Below are positions 3,115-19,542 of a stretch of DNA of 40,407 nt, piece after piece. The notes beneath the pieces were generated by a model that did no database searches, had not been told where the DNA came from, and saw nothing but the letters and a program-made list of their open reading frames with translations. The DNA comes from Candidatus Micrarchaeaceae archaeon (lineage in GTDB: Archaea > Micrarchaeota > Micrarchaeia > Micrarchaeales > CABMGC01), in the NCBI GenBank assembly GCA_038877255.1, contig JAVYWZ010000008.1, positions 1-40,407 on the forward strand, written 5' to 3'. Numbering within the stretch: position 1 is the first letter of the stretch; every line of letters begins with the position of its first letter. The translations under genes were made by a program, and so were the position numbers.

Positions 3115-3353
3115 AGTGGCGTGCCGTAGCCTCCCTTCTGTTCTAGGCGGCATTAGACTAAGCTGCCTTTTTGGCATTGCATGCTCATAGCACGCGCATC
3201 GGCACGTTTCAAGCATACCACAGCGCTCGTATTGTCATTGCATATGCCGTGAAATGCTTCGTTTCTGTTCCGAATTAGGCTGTTAGGCCATGCATGCTCT
3301 GCATGGGGAGAGCTTCCACAGTCACAAGGACCGTAAGCCGCCCGCACGCCACT
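3115..3353 (-). ncRNA. rnpB: RNase P RNA (compact, type M-like)
   Basis: 10-bp P1 AGTGGCGTGC/GCACGCCACT; conserved regions GGAAGCTCTCCC, AACAGAAAC, TGAAACG, TGCAA, GCTTAGTCTAATG, AACAGAAGGGAGGCTA; P4 complementarity CTCCC/GGGAG; TTATAAATA box about 25 nt upstream. Confidence 0.9.
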
Positions 3354-4866: not shown

Positions 4867-5476
4867 CGTTGAATACTTTGAGCACTGTTCCATTGAGCTC
4901 CGATAGCAGCACGTTTACCGATTGCTTAGCGGCGTTAGCTGTATAGTCTACAAGCCATACATTCGTGTATGTCGCGTTTGCAATCTTTGTCTCATTGTAG
5001 AAGTTTGCGCGCGCAGAAACGTTTGCGTAACCGTATTCATTTATAAAAGAGACTACGCTGCTAATGTTGCTGCTTGTAGCCCATGTTATTGCAACTGGCG
5101 AGGAAGTAATTAGATAGGGTTTGCCTGGCGAATAGCCGTTCACCTTGCATGAACCTGTGTAATTGTTGATGTTTGTCGGTACGAAGCCGAACTTCGGATA
5201 ATCATATGCATAAATATAATAGTCGGGGCATGGCGAACTGTAATTCTGTATGAGTGAAACTACTATATGCCAGCTGCCATGGTAAACCGATGGGGTTACG
5301 TTGCCAAGCAGAACCTCTGCCCCGGGATTGCTCTTCTGCAGGTCATTCATTACCAATTTTACTGCCTGAGATTCTGTTACTGTAGCAAATATTACATGAT
5401 AAAACAAGAAATATAGGAGCGCAATCACTACGATTATGACAATTGCTAAAATCAACGTGCCTTCTATTAAGTTCAT
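4856..5476 (-). CDS. Membrane-anchored extracellular hypothetical protein
   Basis: N-terminal TM, many N-x-S/T sequons, Cys pair. Confidence 0.75.
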   Translation of the reverse strand: MNLIEGTLILAIVIIVVIALLYFLFYHVIFATVTESQAVKLVMNDLQKSNPGAEVLLGNVTPSVYHGSWHIVVSLIQNYSSPCPDYYIYAYDYPKFGFVPTNINNYTGSCKVNGYSPGKPYLITSSPVAITWATSSNISSVVSFINEYGYANVSARANFYNETKIANATYTNVWLVDYTANAAKQSVNVLLSELNGTVLKVFNAST

Positions 5477-7777: not shown

Positions 7778-8431
7778 CTATTCAAGCATAAATGTAAATG
7801 CTATTATATCTTCAAAAAATACGTGTTTTGCTATTTTCGCTTTGAGCACATAGCCGTAATTATTTGCCTGCTTCAAGAGCTTCTCTAAATTGCTAAACGA
7901 GCTTGCCGAAAGCACAACTGCGCCATTTGGCGTCAAATGGCTCTTTGCTTCTTTCAAAAACTCTAGCGAAAGCTCTACGCCTTCATCGCCGCCGCTAAGC
8001 ATCTCTGCCTCATGTACTGGTTCCTTTGGGTCGCGCCTCAGGTATGGCGCGTTGAACGCAATTATTTCAAAATAACCATTCACATTTTCGAACAAATCGC
8101 TCTTGATTACAGTGCATTTCTGTTTCAGCTTATTATTTAGTGCAGTGTTCTCTTTTGCAATGGCAACAGCGTCATCGCTTTTATCTACGAGCACTACCTT
8201 AGAAACAACGCTGCTCTTAGCGGCAAAGAGGCCGATAATGCCCGTGCCTGTGCCCATGTCAAGAACTCTTATTTCCTTAATGCCAGACTTTTCCATTTCG
8301 TTTAGGCATTTGTTGAGTGCTTCGATCACTAGGAACGTGTCGTCTTCCGGTTCGTATGCCTTGTCAATAGTATTTAGGATGATGCCATTGAATTTGTACA
8401 AATGCTTCTTATCTTTTTTATGCAAGTCCAT
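7778..8431 (-). CDS. prmC: HemK2/PrmC-type glutamine methyltransferase
   Basis: YEPEDDTFL, VLDMGTGTG, FNAPY (NPPY variant), GG..G, FFE. Confidence 0.85.
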   Translation of the reverse strand: MDLHKKDKKHLYKFNGIILNTIDKAYEPEDDTFLVIEALNKCLNEMEKSGIKEIRVLDMGTGTGIIGLFAAKSSVVSKVVLVDKSDDAVAIAKENTALNNKLKQKCTVIKSDLFENVNGYFEIIAFNAPYLRRDPKEPVHEAEMLSGGDEGVELSLEFLKEAKSHLTPNGAVVLSASSFSNLEKLLKQANNYGYVLKAKIAKHVFFEDIIAFTFMLE

Positions 8432-8514
8432 CACGCCTGCGCATAAATTATGCCACTTTTATTGTGCGCATTATCAGGCACATATCTTATCATATTTTAT
8501 ATAATAAGTATAAG

Positions 8515-8594
8515 TGTGCAATGCTGTAAATGTGAAACGCTGCAAATGTTAAACGCTGCAAATGTGCAATGTTTTAAGTGTGTGATGTCGTATG
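8515..8594. repeat. Degenerate 16-bp tandem repeat (4-5 units) in divergent intergenic region
   Basis: TGTGCAATGCTGTAAA / TGTGAAACGCTGCAAA / TGTTAAACGCTGCAAA / TGTGCAATGTTTTAAG / TGTGTGATGTCGTATG. Confidence 0.75.
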
Positions 8595-9164
8595 TCACTT
8601 GTGCTGTTGCTGTTGCGTGCGTCAAAAGAATACAGTTATGGAAGCAGGTCTTATGTGCCTGTCGAAAAGATTATAAAAAAAAGCACAGTACTTCGCATAA
8701 TTTCCCCTTACATCGATCCGTACTATGCTGAATTTTTGATTAGGCACGCAAAAGGCAAGCGCATTCGTATAATTTCTTCATCGATAAGCAAGAGTGCGAA
8801 GGCAAAACTGAAGAGGCGCTCATTTTCAAAATTTGTGGCATTTGTTGCATTTCTTTTAGTGCTAAACATGTTTTTGGCACACGGGCAGCCTGCGCTAGCG
8901 TTCATATCTCTAATCTGCTCGCTAATATACTTGCTTGTTTATCTAGAGGATTACGAGACTAAGAAGGGCATTCTGCTTAAAGTACCAAGGCGGTTCGTGC
9001 ATGCAAAAGTATACATAGGCGATTCTGCTGCTGTTGAAGGATCTGCTAATTTGACATTCATGGGCATGCACAAAAACATAGAACAAACCCGGTTTATACA
9101 AAACAGTGAAGAAGTTGCTATTCTAAAGAACGAGTTTGACAAGCTCTGGCACAGGCTCGGCTAA
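8592..9164 (+). CDS. Single-HKD phospholipase D-superfamily protein with internal TM hairpin
   Basis: IISPYID, HAKVYIGD (HxKxxxxD), GSANLT, N.E, F..LW; two hydrophobic helices in the middle; start codon uncertain. Confidence 0.8.
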   Translation: MSLVLLLLRASKEYSYGSRSYVPVEKIIKKSTVLRIISPYIDPYYAEFLIRHAKGKRIRIISSSISKSAKAKLKRRSFSKFVAFVAFLLVLNMFLAHGQPALAFISLICSLIYLLVYLEDYETKKGILLKVPRRFVHAKVYIGDSAAVEGSANLTFMGMHKNIEQTRFIQNSEEVAILKNEFDKLWHRLG

Positions 9165-15536: not shown

Positions 15537-16835
15537 CTAACCTATCTTGTTCTTGTGCATGTAAGGAACAAGCACGTCTGGAACTGTTATAGTACCATCA
15601 TCGTTTGCATAATTTTCTATTATTGCGACCATCGTTCTTGTTGTAGCTATCGCAGTGCCGTTGAGCGTATGCACGTACTTTCTTTCGTTTCCTTCATCGT
15701 ATTTTATATCAAGCCTTAAAGACTGCCAATCGGTGCAGTTTGAGCAAGAAACAACCTCGCGGTATTGGCCTTGCGATGGCATGTACGCTTCTATGTCATA
15801 TTTCTTTGCTGCAACGCTACCTATATCCCCTGTGCATATGTTAACAACACGGTAAGGCAATCCAAGCTTCTGGTTTAACATCTCTGAGTTTTTGACTATT
15901 TCCTCAAGAATATCCCATGAATCCTCTTGCCTTGAAAAGACGAATTGCTCAACCTTATAGAATTGGTGCACGCGAAATATGCCCTTTGTATCTTTTCCAT
16001 GCGCGCCTGCTTCTCTCCTGAAGCATGGGCTCACCCCAACAAACTTCTTTGGCAGTTCCTTTGCCGATAGCACCTTGCCTGCATACATTGCTGCTAACGG
16101 ATGCTCAGAAGTAGCTATCATAAAAAGTTCATCATTAACATGCTCATAATCTGCCTTTTCTTTTGCCTCGCCAGGCTCCGCAACTTTATAAAGCATCTCC
16201 TCGAAATCGCCCATTGTAGTTACGCCACGGTAGTACTCGCGCTTTAGCATTAGGGGCGGAGCTATAAGCGTATACCCTTTGCCTGTAAGCTCGTCTATTG
16301 CAAAGCGTATGAGCGACTGCTCCAAAAGAGCAATATCACCCTTCAGGTAGTAAAATCTTGCGCCAGAAACCTTTGATGCTTGGTCCAAATCTACAAGACC
16401 GAGCTTGCCGAGCACGTCTACGTGATTTTTGGTAGTTTGCGTTTTTATAGTGCCCCACTTCCTTACTTCGACGTTATCGCTGCTATCTTTGCCATATGGT
16501 ACTGATTCATGAAGTACGTTTGGCAGATTCCAGAGAAGTGACTCAATCTTTTTTTGGTATTGCTCAAGCTGGCTCTCAAGTTCATCTATTTGCTCTTTAG
16601 TAGAAGCAAGCTTTTCCAGCTCTTCTTTGCTGGGCTCTTTGCCCTGCTTCTTTGCGTTAGAAACTGCTTCGCTACCTTTGTTGCGGTCAGACCTGAGCTT
16701 CTGCACCTGCACCATGAGCTTTCTTGATTTCTCGTCGTACTCCTGCAGCTCGTCGATTGGAAAGTCGCTCTTCCTTTTCTCAAGCGACTTTTTTATCGCG
16801 TCAAAATTATCCCTGACATATTTTGTTGTTATCAT
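15537..16835 (-). CDS. serS: Seryl-tRNA synthetase (class II, standard type)
   Basis: LPN....VP.G, TSEHP, FRREAG, RVHQF.KVEQF, EVVSCSNC, HTLNGT. Confidence 0.97.
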   Translation of the reverse strand: MITTKYVRDNFDAIKKSLEKRKSDFPIDELQEYDEKSRKLMVQVQKLRSDRNKGSEAVSNAKKQGKEPSKEELEKLASTKEQIDELESQLEQYQKKIESLLWNLPNVLHESVPYGKDSSDNVEVRKWGTIKTQTTKNHVDVLGKLGLVDLDQASKVSGARFYYLKGDIALLEQSLIRFAIDELTGKGYTLIAPPLMLKREYYRGVTTMGDFEEMLYKVAEPGEAKEKADYEHVNDELFMIATSEHPLAAMYAGKVLSAKELPKKFVGVSPCFRREAGAHGKDTKGIFRVHQFYKVEQFVFSRQEDSWDILEEIVKNSEMLNQKLGLPYRVVNICTGDIGSVAAKKYDIEAYMPSQGQYREVVSCSNCTDWQSLRLDIKYDEGNERKYVHTLNGTAIATTRTMVAIIENYANDDGTITVPDVLVPYMHKNKIG

Positions 16836-16905
16836 ACAAACACTTAGTTATTGCACAAGCACACTGTAATTGAAACACCTAGTATATTTTATTACTTACT
16901 TTTAT

Positions 16906-17447
16906 ATAATGTGGCGTAAAACCCACACCCTTCAGGGGTGGGATATAAGCCACTGCAGAAATGTGCAGAAATGCATATAAATTTTGAGATGCATAAGGCC
17001 ATAACCATGATCGTCATGAAAACTGCATATAAATACCGTGCATATCCTTCAAAGGAGCAAAAGGCAAAATTAGATAGTCAAATGTTCCTCGCAAAAAATC
17101 TCTACAATCTTCTTCTTGAAAAATCGAAAGCGTATTACAAAGAAACAGGGAAGACGCTCACTAAATGCGGAAACGTGCAGGAAATGACCCTGAATAAAAG
17201 AACATTCATATGCGAGAAATGCGGAAATAAGGAAGACAGGGACATAAATGCATCAATGAACATACTTGAGCGAGGAATACTCGCAAGAGCTACCGAAGGA
17301 CATTCGGGAAGTCAAGCCTGTGGAGACGATGTAAGACCTTCCGCAAGGGAGGCAGTTGCCGACGAAGCAGGAACTATACGGGTGGCATCATGACAGCAAA
17401 TAAAGCCACCCTGGAAGCCCACGAATTCATTCGTGGGAGGATGTCAC
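16906..17447 (+). mobile_element. Non-autonomous IS200/IS605 (IS1341-like) element with internally deleted tnpB and intact ends
   Basis: Left-end hairpin GTGGC..CCCACACCCTTCAGGGGTGGG..GCCAC (16911-16953); right-end hairpin CCCACGAAT/ATTCGTGGG ending GGATGTCAC; candidate TAM TTTAT at 16901-16905 (left boundary inferred). Confidence 0.85.
17007..17393 (+). pseudogene. tnpB: tnpB deletion derivative (N-terminal HTH fused in frame to Zn-ribbon/RuvC-III)
   Basis: KTAYKYRAYPSKEQ...LYN..L joined near 17163 to KCG...RTFICEKCG..EDRDINASMNI; RuvC-I/II absent. Confidence 0.9.
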
Positions 17448-17471
17448 AAATTATTGCGAGCACGTTGCAAG
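17290..17471 (+). ncRNA. Putative omegaRNA (reRNA) scaffold plus flank-derived guide
   Basis: ACCGAAGGACATTCGGGAAGTCAAGCCTGTGGAGA and right-end hairpin are typical of tnpB 3' ends; 5' boundary approximate. Confidence 0.55.
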
Positions 17472-17557
17472 GCAGGGGTGGCAGAGTTTGGCCAAATGCG
17501 GCGGGCTTAGGCCCCGTTCCCTTAGCGGGTGCGTGAGTTCAAATCTCACCCCCTGCA
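17472..17557 (+). tRNA. tRNA-Leu(TAG), no intron, CCA not encoded
   Basis: Acceptor GCAGGGG/CCCCTGC, anticodon stem GCGGG/CCCGT with CT-TAG-GC loop, long variable arm, GTGAG-TTCAAAT-CTCAC, discriminator A. Confidence 0.95.
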
Positions 17558-17640
17558 CTTATTAGGCACTAATGCCTCTAAGCCCACCTGCTGCGCAGTA
17601 TAGCGATACGAACCCGTAGGCCCATGATTCTGCATTCTGA

Positions 17641-18219
17641 TTATTGGCGCATAACGCTGCGCAGTGGCGCCGCAATTTCTGGTTTCTTTAAAATCGCATA
17701 GATAAATTCCAATACGTTGCCGTTGTATCTGTACAGCGCTTTTTCTACCGCAAGGCACTGTGCCCTTGCGCCATCTGCATTTTCTTGGTCTGCTGCGTAA
17801 TACGTTAGGTATTCAATTACGTCTTCTTTACTGGGTTTCTCATTGCCAGAAAGCTTGTTCGCGGTGTAAGAGCCCATAAGCTCTGCTATGCCTTCCTCAA
17901 AATTCATGTTGCTCAAATAGTCGTGCTGCACTATGTGGCTCAGTTCGTGGCCGAGCGTGCAGTCGATCTCAAAGATGTTCAAGTACATGCTTGAGAAATA
18001 TGGCAACACGATACCTACTGTTCTGTTTTTAAAGTCGGCAAATCCTCCTACGCGCCATTCGTTTTCCTCAAATTCAAGCTTTACGTCATTCACGTCTTCA
18101 AAGCCCATGCGCACAAATAGCGACTTGCACCTTTCGAACTCGCTTCTGCATAGCTGTTCCAGCGCTTCTTTGCCATCTAGCGTTTGTTTTTCTTTTTTAT
18201 CCTGCAAACGGCTGTGCAT
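17641..18219 (-). CDS. Putative zincin (HEXXH) metallopeptidase, orphan
   Basis: GGFA, TLGHELSH, downstream FEEGIAE. Confidence 0.7.
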   Translation of the reverse strand: MHSRLQDKKEKQTLDGKEALEQLCRSEFERCKSLFVRMGFEDVNDVKLEFEENEWRVGGFADFKNRTVGIVLPYFSSMYLNIFEIDCTLGHELSHIVQHDYLSNMNFEEGIAELMGSYTANKLSGNEKPSKEDVIEYLTYYAADQENADGARAQCLAVEKALYRYNGNVLEFIYAILKKPEIAAPLRSVMRQ

Positions 18220-18339
18220 GCAACCATATACATAATTGGCGTGAAAATATTAATCTGACGCGTTATTGTTATTGGGCTTGCCTCATCTAAATCAATATTT
18301 TTCTATTTTGCAGGATTTGCATCTTGATTTTGTTTTTAT

Positions 18340-19542
18340 TTATAATTGGCGTTCGATGCTTTCTATGCGAGCAAGCTCATTTATTTTGGCTATTCGCTCT
18401 CCCCCTACGATCCCGCATTTTATGTACTCTGAACCCAATGCTACCGCAAGATGCGACATGAATGCATCAATCGTTTCTCCGCTCCTGTGAGAAACTACTG
18501 TTTTTATGCCGTGTGAATGCGCAAGCTCGACCGTTTCAAGAACATCACTTAGCGTACCGACCTGATTAACCTTTATGAGTATCGCAGTAGTAGCACCTTT
18601 GCTTATGCCATTGTCGAGCCTCTTCTTGTTTGTAGCGTAAATATCATCGCCAACAATCAGTGCTTGATCTTTTAACGCCTTAGTGATCTCAGCAAATCCT
18701 TCAGCATCATTGGAATCCATCGGGTCTTCCACATATGCAATTTTGTTGCGTTGTGCCAAATCCAAAAGAAAAGAAATGTATTCTTGCCGATCAAGTATTC
18801 TTTTGCCATTGTCAAAAACATAATTTCCGTTTTTGTAAAACTCGCTTGCAGCACAATCAATGCCTATGTTTGTGCCATTGCTTGAAGCTTGATCGCTTGC
18901 CAGCGCAAGCGCAGAAGAGTCGTCAAGTTTAGTGTTCCAAGCGTTTTCAATGTTAAGCCCTGTCGCTAAGTCCTTCGATTGCAAATAAGCGCCTATTGCG
19001 CTGTGTATCACTATATTCTTTTTTGCGTTTTCCATAACGCTGCCGCTCGAGGTTGCAAGAAGAATCTCTTGTATGCTCATCTTATTGTGCGAATGCACTC
19101 CGCCGCCAATCACGTTTCCAAGCAATCCAGGAATTTTCTTCTTGATGCCGAGCTTCTTTGTGAAGTTTTCGTATATGTATTGGTATAGCTCCAGATTCGC
19201 TTCAGCGGCGGCGAGCTTAGCCGCAGCTATTGAGATTGCAGTAGCGGCGTTGCCGCCTATTTTTGAAAAGTTTTCAGTGCCGTCTATTTCGTGCAGCATG
19301 CTATCTATTCCTTTTTGTTCCGGCTCCATTCCTACAAGCTTGCTTTTGTATTGCTTGAACTCCTCTACGCTCTTTTCTGCAGAATTGCCTGCAAATGGCA
19401 CTGCTTCATATTCGCTTCTACTTGTGCCGCTTGGAGCCATCGCTTCTGCACTATTGCCATTATTATCAAAAAGCCTTGCAGCAAGCGTTTCTTTGCCGCG
19501 CGAATCAAGAATAACCCGCAGCTCTGCATTTGTTATGTTCAT
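18340..19542 (-). CDS. eno: Enolase
   Basis: ILDSRG, PSGTS, NVIGGG.H, IQE, IDCAAS, EDP, VGDD, IKVNQ.GT, SHRSGET, GER..K.NEL. Confidence 0.96.
   Translation of the reverse strand: MNITNAELRVILDSRGKETLAARLFDNNGNSAEAMAPSGTSRSEYEAVPFAGNSAEKSVEEFKQYKSKLVGMEPEQKGIDSMLHEIDGTENFSKIGGNAATAISIAAAKLAAAEANLELYQYIYENFTKKLGIKKKIPGLLGNVIGGGVHSHNKMSIQEILLATSSGSVMENAKKNIVIHSAIGAYLQSKDLATGLNIENAWNTKLDDSSALALASDQASSNGTNIGIDCAASEFYKNGNYVFDNGKRILDRQEYISFLLDLAQRNKIAYVEDPMDSNDAEGFAEITKALKDQALIVGDDIYATNKKRLDNGISKGATTAILIKVNQVGTLSDVLETVELAHSHGIKTVVSHRSGETIDAFMSHLAVALGSEYIKCGIVGGERIAKINELARIESIERQL

Follow-up and report, generated by a model that had tools for sequence, protein, structure and literature searches.

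Among the transposable elements described so far, the closest kind to the one treated here are the palindrome-associated transposable elements (PATEs) of Haloquadratum walsbyi, core-deleted elements of the IS605/IS1341 type, as far as the account of them goes that we drew on (PMC3119063). The transposon-adjacent motif (TAM) TTTAT has already been published for archaeal solo-tnpB elements, in the parts of a study on Sulfolobus islandicus that deal with them (PMC10640517). In a paper on circular omegaRNAs, tRNAs appear, in the section concerned, merely as separate circular RNAs (PMC12558985). In the open-access literature we found no description of a TnpB or an omegaRNA located beside a tRNA, nor of a TnpB TAM inside a TATA box. 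The locus reported here combines such a TAM with a putative omegaRNA beside a tRNA. It lies on a contig of 40,407 nucleotides (JAVYWZ010000008.1, forward strand, assembly GCA_038877255.1; hereafter the window) from Candidatus Micrarchaeaceae archaeon, where a tnpB-only mini-element has, as judged by sequence comparison, inserted into the TATA box of the gene for tRNA-Leu(UAG). The host assembly comprises 713 kb in 30 contigs and is estimated to be 92% complete; the window is its contig C8. So small a genome suggests an organism of the DPANN type. The explanation which we favour, and which we consider probable, is a PATE-like insertion with expression of the tRNA by read-through, the arrangement being a tolerated by-product. 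The coordinates of all features are collected in Table 1.

The insertion is apparent from the flanks. The left junction (16905/16906) reads CTTACTTTTAT before and ATAATGTGGCG after the boundary. On the right side GGAGGATGTCAC ends at 17447, AAATTATTGCGAGCACGTTGCAAG extends from 17448 to 17471, and GCAGGGG begins at 17472, so that the right end and tRNA-Leu are separated by 24 nt. ARAGORN reports the tRNA on the plus strand with the anticodon tag, and the Rfam tRNA match (17472-17557) scores 53.7 bits. When 16906-17447 is deleted, TTTAT and AAA are joined to TTTATAAA, which is followed by 21 nt and then by tRNA-Leu, the box thus being at -29 to -22. The same site between the gene for seryl-tRNA synthetase (SerRS) and tRNA-Leu(UAG) is empty in the congener G001, where TTTATAAA is followed by 20 nt (-28 to -21), and also in G003 and G005, where TTTTTAAA is followed by 23 nt (-31 to -24). 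G004 has the same TTTATAAA, with about 55 extra bases before tRNA-Leu compared with G001. The rejoined box and the position of the TATA box at the empty sites of the congeners thus place the element in the former TATA box of tRNA-Leu. The genes around the element, aRF1 and then SerRS, are archaeal housekeeping genes. A separate observation concerns the extra bases of G004 (contig C13), which imply a long leader that would need RNase P.

The ends of the element were compared across the genomes of the order, with up to five matches taken per genome; all counts of right ends in relatives given here and below are counts among the matches listed. Nothing stated here draws on G038, an unpublished genome. 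The right end was GTCAC at 28 of 28 loci from 28 genomes, and the conservation runs through GGAGGATGTCAC before the sequences diverge. Further right ends were GTCAC in 66 of 88 cases; the other 22 (16 with GTCAG, two with GTCAA, and other variants) probably belong to sister families. At the left-end junctions TTAT preceded the element in 21 of 21 cases and TTTAT in 15 of 21, and TTAT is followed by four to five variable bases and then by a conserved hairpin. A near-identical empty site was found in the congener G002, in which AAAAGATTTAT is followed by TAAGT and tRNA-Met. At the filled site on contig C4 of the present genome, AAAAGATTTAT is followed by a 528-nt element, then TAAACGAAT and tRNA-Met. 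This comparison shows that the insertion occurred exactly 3' of TTTAT and without target duplication. A second pair of a filled and an empty site, at tRNA-Arg, is seamless too. The conservation of the right end, the motif at the left junction and the empty site together establish that the boundaries 16906 and 17447 are correct.

Both ends carry subterminal hairpins, and there are no terminal inverted repeats; in the right-end hairpin, compensatory changes were seen in four to seven sequences per pair. The terminal 35 nt (17413-17447), consisting of this hairpin and AGGATGTCA, are found at 94-100% identity in numerous genomes of the order, including places where the remainder of the element gives no match; the 16 GTCAG ends are among them. 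The left end of the window copy (16906-16965) begins with GTGGCGTAAAACCCAC, whereas the other copies in the genome begin with GTGAGCGGGAAAACC. Near-complete sister copies on contigs C7, C4 and C2 are 93-97% identical to the interior (16965-17447). The window copy therefore looks like a recombinant. The same variant left end is also present as a solo left end at C7:16371-16431, C22:7672-7702 and C5:6714-6783, each time after TTAT.

An initial annotation of this locus, made from its letters and reading frames, had proposed an element at 16906-17447 with the TTTAT motif and these ends, a TATA box TTTATAAA restored 21 nt before tRNA-Leu, and a distance of 24 nt from the right end to the tRNA. The right-end survey, the 21 TTAT junctions and the empty site in G002 bear out the element, its motif and its ends. 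The restored box and the spacing proved correct as well: the empty alleles of G001, G003 and G005 have a TATA box at a similar distance, and the sister copies, checked for a different boundary or TAM, have the same ones.

Inside its ends the element is a remnant. The truncated open reading frame (ORF), searched over 16938-17393, gave Pfam matches to PF12323 (HTH_OrfB_IS605) and PF07282 (Cas12f1-like TNB) only, and none to PF01385. A full-length relative of 413 aa from G040, which shares both ends with the window copy, has all three domains (PF12323, PF01385 and PF07282), and in tblastn the truncated ORF aligns with its residues 1-52 and 322-413. Residues ~53-321 are absent from the window copy, so that the RuvC catalytic core is incomplete. 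Two domains instead of three and the split alignment identify the insert as a deletion derivative that has lost the RuvC core. In the same genome there are 21 matching stretches, including fragments at contig ends. The 128-aa ORF is intact in three copies (window 17007-17393, C4:8396-8782, C7:5163-5549), which have pairwise ratios of nonsynonymous to synonymous substitution rates (dN/dS) of 0.19-0.30 from 15-28 differences. These low values may reflect selection on the mini-protein or on the overlapping RNA, or may merely be due to the small numbers. Two other derivatives may be mentioned: a copy in G002 has a different in-frame deletion, and a 30-nt remnant after TTTAT at C15:12454-12483 has the beginning of the left end joined straight to the closing bases of the right end, a terminal-only form like the shortest PATEs.

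The last part of the element carries a conserved structure. RNAalifold, applied to an alignment of the last ~220 nt of 23 copies, returned a consensus of 33 pairs over 17288-17447, 15 of them with compensatory changes; it includes a terminal hairpin and a long-range closing stem, GAC(A/G) with TGTC, beside the right end. The terminal ~160 nt can thus be regarded as a putative omegaRNA-like scaffold, folded as an omegaRNA should look. In 16000-18500, no Rfam family besides tRNA was matched at E<=1, and the scaffold is without a curated family. The minimum free energy fold of 17288-17558 (z = -1.75) lacked the tRNA cloverleaf and was set aside. By the established architecture of TnpB and its omegaRNA, 17448-17471 would have the role of the guide. 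The right-flank guide logic of the initial annotation fits these results, both in the covarying RNA and in the presence of an RNase P RNA gene in the genome. A match to the RNase P protein Rpp29 (PF01868) was lacking in the assembly, which is 92% complete; we do not take this to mean that the protein is absent.

How is tRNA-Leu then expressed? The plus strand between 16880 and 17620 was scanned for TATA-like 8-mers with at most one mismatch to six consensus forms. Such 8-mers occur only at 16901/16902, 16975, 17027/17028 and 17242. The first of these belongs to the left junction, which after insertion reads TTTATATAA (16901-16909). The box at 16975 has a TATA-like counterpart at the equivalent position in all aligned copies and full-length relatives. 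Both it and the junction box are good TATA-like sequences oriented towards tRNA-Leu. No T-run terminator (at least four T) was found on the plus strand in 16986-17620. In addition to the points above, the initial annotation had stated that the left junction recreates a TATA-like sequence and that no TATA box remains near the tRNA; both statements hold.

Guide production by any TnpB element requires transcription across the right end. The proposed course of events is as follows. A core-deleted, tnpB-only (IS1341-like) element of the PATE-like kind inserted seamlessly 3' of TTTAT in the TATA box of tRNA-Leu, displacing the tRNA by 542 nt relative to the first half of the box and leaving no usable TATA box within reach. 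Transcripts would start at the TATA box of the junction and/or at the internal tnpB promoter (ATATAAAT, 16975), run across the omegaRNA region and the right end, and contain tRNA-Leu as their 3' part. RNase P would then cut at the 5' end of the tRNA. The spacing of 24 nt would merely be the TATA-to-tRNA distance of such promoters. Read-through is supported by the state of the tRNA gene. Around it the intergenic DNA can no longer be aligned with that of the congeners, yet the gene itself is intact and shares 98% identity with its orthologues. The initial annotation, too, had derived the tRNA from read-through, which is plausible.

Two further tRNA genes are in the same situation. On C4, the sister copy (8309-8836; region C4:8188-8970) is located between a divergent tRNA-His and the intron-containing tRNA-Met(CAU). 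The latter starts 8 nt past the right end and lies 528 nt farther from its former TATA box than at the empty site. In G002 (C1:~4930-5431), a differently deleted mini-element follows TTTAT, and its right end lies 23 nt before tRNA-Arg(UCG). The orthologous Arg site of the present genome (G000:C1:78062-78170) is empty and has an intact box GGTTTATATTTGC and a spacer that is identical at 18 of 23 positions. Three tRNAs in the genus (Leu, Met and Arg) have lost their promoter alike, and such a placement of tRNAs thus appears to be tolerated. Read-through combined with RNase P processing is likely the best explanation for these three tRNAs, in two species, that have no TATA box of their own.

Some observations on these and similar loci stand apart from this argument. 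The left junction on C4 rebuilds a TATA-like box, which faces tRNA-His. The tRNA-Arg locus of G002 is a second clean case in which a member of the mini-element family splits the TATA box of a tRNA. A truncated copy with a degenerate right end is found at C13:15931-16213; its left junction, TTTTTAT followed by AAAAGTGAGC, abuts the upstream region of a divergent tRNA-Asn.

Several points weigh against expression by read-through as we propose it. The promoters are called solely by their likeness to consensus sequences, and weak AT-rich sites may suffice for archaeal RNA polymerase to start; one residual AT stretch, the AT-only AAATTATT at 17448-17455, is left near tRNA-Leu. A second tRNA-Leu(UAG) or a compensating tRNA may exist, as the genome is 92% complete and 37 tRNAs were detected. 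The left junction is not covered by any independent assembly, and the metagenome contig that covers the right junction (see below) has 1056 nt upstream of 17413 which are unlike the window.

The first of these points leads to the possibility that tRNA-Leu keeps a cryptic or non-consensus promoter of its own, situated in the right end or the 24-nt spacer, with AAATTATT as a candidate. The short tRNA leaders in this genome and a TATA distance that depends on the gene are in keeping with such a promoter. Yet there is no TATA-like 8-mer on the plus strand between 17250 and the tRNA at the threshold used, and the AT stretch ends 16 nt before tRNA-Leu; with the usual archaeal spacing between TATA box and start, transcription from it would begin inside the tRNA. 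On C4, moreover, just 8 nt lie between the GC-rich right-end hairpin and tRNA-Met, leaving no room for a private promoter. We therefore regard an own promoter of tRNA-Leu as unlikely.

Alternatively, tRNA-Leu(UAG) could be silenced and dispensable, its codons being decoded by a second copy or a different tRNA encoded in the missing 8% of the genome. Only two Leu tRNAs (CAG and UAG) are among the 37 found in the 92%-complete assembly, which leaves space for such a gene. However, the tRNA is 98% identical to its orthologues and the relatives have one close copy each. Three different tRNAs in two species share the situation, and three dispensable genes are hard to credit. Silencing is thus very improbable.

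The lack of cover at the left junction raises the question of an assembly artefact, i. e. a repeat-induced misjoin that placed the mini-element here in a metagenome-assembled genome; contigs C2, C24 and C29 do break inside copies of the element. Against this, an independently built metagenome contig (run X1, 1636 nt) matches 17413-17992, which comprises the right end, the spacer, the tRNA and downstream DNA, with a single difference (17468 C>T). The left junction carries the TAM of the family, and the flanks rejoin into a TATA box where the orthologous sites have theirs, an outcome that a misjoin at random would not give. A misjoin is hence scarcely credible, and read-through from a genuine insertion remains the reading that we prefer. 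To judge from the upstream part of the X1 contig, the element at the tRNA-Leu site may be longer or otherwise different in a related population. No empty allele of the same strain was found in the four DNA sequencing runs that were compared with the locus. A joint of 16652 to 17472 in one contig of run X2 (31 nt on one side, 90% likeness threshold) most likely stems from another organism and was not used.

A different question is whether the tandem of element and tRNA has itself been adapted. In such a module RNase P would set the 3' end of a 24-nt guide, a TnpB would act in trans, and the element would be kept since the tRNA depends on it. The intact, covarying omegaRNA scaffold, the RNase P RNA and the truncated ORF, which is intact in three copies with low dN/dS, would suit this proposal. 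So would the four tandems of a right end and a tRNA in the order, with Leu at 24 nt, Met at 8 nt, Arg at 23 nt and His at 49 nt, the last of which (in G044) keeps its own TATA box. When the window locus is left out, however, a tRNA on the same strand lies within 50 nt downstream of the right end in 3 of 123 cases (one of 8 in this genome, none of 27 and two of 88 in relatives). As a background, 29 of the 2237 non-coding TTAT sites of this genome (1.3%) lie at most 50 nt upstream of a tRNA on the same strand, from which about 1.6 of 123 are expected by chance. Hence the adjacency of right ends and tRNAs recurs about as often as chance predicts, and the wider survey shows no excess. Within this genome 2 of 9 right ends lie near a tRNA (P ~0.006 against non-coding TTAT sites); we rejected this value as evidence, as the index case had been picked for the feature. 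With the index case taken as given, a further tandem would occur at one or more of the remaining right ends of this genome with a chance of roughly 0.1, calculated from the 1.3%.

The partners which an adapted module would need were not found either. No cognate full-length TnpB was detected in the assembled genome, which is 92% complete; the sole full-length TnpB in it (C7:40388-41281, near a contig end) shares 23% identity with the mini-element's family. A Y1 TnpA (PF01797) was likewise not found in this genome at that completeness. As to the relatives, PF01797 has three matches in G007, is broken in G040 and was not found in G002, G005 and G032. On C4, a cut by RNase P would leave a spacer of 8 nt, which is not enough for a guide. 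Furthermore, G001, G003 and G005 have no insertion at the tRNA-Leu site, which marks the event as lineage-specific. Excision in this family is known to be seamless and would restore TTTATAAA, and tRNA-Leu thus has no need of the element, which is merely hard to lose without TnpA. An adapted omegaRNA-guide-tRNA module is therefore decidedly improbable. The initial annotation had seen in the locus a natural design of guide RNA and tRNA and had suggested that the element may be retained because the tRNA needs it; neither suggestion found support. We conclude that this arrangement is probably a tolerated side effect of the TAM being half of an archaeal TATA box, and not an adapted omegaRNA-tRNA device.

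A bolder version of the module may nevertheless be stated. TnpB elements with a TTTAT TAM would home into the TATA boxes of tRNAs in this reduced lineage, and single-copy tRNAs (Leu-UAG, Met-CAU on C4 and Arg-UCG in the congener) would become the 3' cistron of an omegaRNA transcript. One cut by RNase P would then mature the tRNA and at the same time set a guide of 23-24 nt, with which a TnpB in trans would police the disrupted promoter. If true, this would be the first natural omegaRNA-tRNA polycistron, and its 23-24-nt guide would match the interval from TATA box to start of the empty promoter. We consider it quite unlikely.

Table 1. Features of the window at and around the split TATA box of tRNA-Leu(UAG)
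Feature	Position	Strand	Basis and remarks
Core-deleted, non-autonomous IS200/IS605-type (tnpB-only) mini-element, 542 nt	16906..17447	+	Sister copies and full-length relatives
TTTAT, TAM/target site; 5' half of the former tRNA-Leu TATA box	16901..16905	+	Junction counts; empty-site comparison
Left-end subterminal hairpin, GTGGC...GCCAC around CCCAC...GTGGG; variant type	16911..16953	+	Compensatory differences between the two left-end types
Internal TATA-like box ATATAAAT, probable tnpB promoter	16975..16982	+	~25 nt upstream of the ATG of the ORF
Truncated tnpB ORF, 128 aa; HTH N-terminus and zinc-finger/RuvC-III C-terminus kept, RuvC-I/II core gone	17007..17393	+	
omegaRNA-like structured scaffold, over the 3' end of the ORF and the right end, finishing with GTCAC	17288..17447	+	RNAalifold, 23 copies
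24-nt spacer	17448..17471	+	Predicted guide (right flank); includes AAA, the 3' half of the former TATA box, and the stretch that used to separate that box from the tRNA
tRNA-Leu(UAG), intact	17472..17558	+	ARAGORN; Rfam; 98% identical to the orthologues in the congeners G001 and G004
SerRS gene	15537..16835	-	PF00587 and PF02403; divergent left neighbour; synteny anchor for the empty sites
Archaeal RNase P RNA gene	3115..3353	-	RF00373, 95.7 bits (gathering score 84); would be needed for 5' maturation of a read-through tRNA precursor

The locus is a clean case in which the target motif of an element, TTTAT, is half of a core promoter element of its host. The consequences are that insertions strike promoters, that a TATA box forms anew at the left junction, and that the gene downstream probably comes to depend on transcripts passing through the element. 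Possibly, tRNA genes tolerate such an insertion better than protein genes do, since RNase P can rescue any long leader. With three loci in one genus at which the 3' end of the predicted guide abuts the RNase P site, the question how the 3' ends of omegaRNAs are set would become testable, given transcript data or a culture.

In engineered polycistronic tRNA-gRNA arrays a guide is placed beside a tRNA and both are released by the enzymes of tRNA processing; these arrays are designed and proven. The present tandem resembles them in layout only: its co-transcription and processing are predicted, an effector was not found in the assembled genome, and the tandem is not conserved. A natural likeness exists to TldR, also a TnpB-derived system, with a guide that matches promoter-proximal sequence, according to the part of its description considered here (PMC10705468). 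TldR, however, is a nuclease-dead repressor guided to promoters, full-size and domesticated, and has conserved target genes, whereas the locus described here has a 128-aa remnant, and guide and promoter are linked solely via the insertion site.

Another archaeal counterpart is the solo-tnpB of S. islandicus REY15A. There TTTAT stands where the left end is cleaved, the omegaRNA scaffold is formed by a conserved right end containing two hairpins, and the guide by a 3' flank that is not conserved (PMC10640517). This likeness is one of described features and not of compared sequences, and TATA boxes and tRNA genes are not discussed in the portion of that study used here. The PATEs of H. walsbyi and the present element are alike in being non-autonomous, core-deleted derivatives of the tnpB-only type with subterminal palindromes, without inverted terminal repeats and without target duplication, as the available description of the PATEs has it (PMC3119063). 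Very short versions that consist of the termini only occur in both, here as the 30-nt fusion on C15. Unlike the PATEs of that description, the window copy keeps an intact in-frame ORF of 128 aa together with a complete omegaRNA scaffold, resides in a non-haloarchaeal genome of ~0.7 Mb, and splits the TATA box of a tRNA. No new mechanism is shown here, and we regard the element as one of the PATE-like kind in another archaeal lineage.

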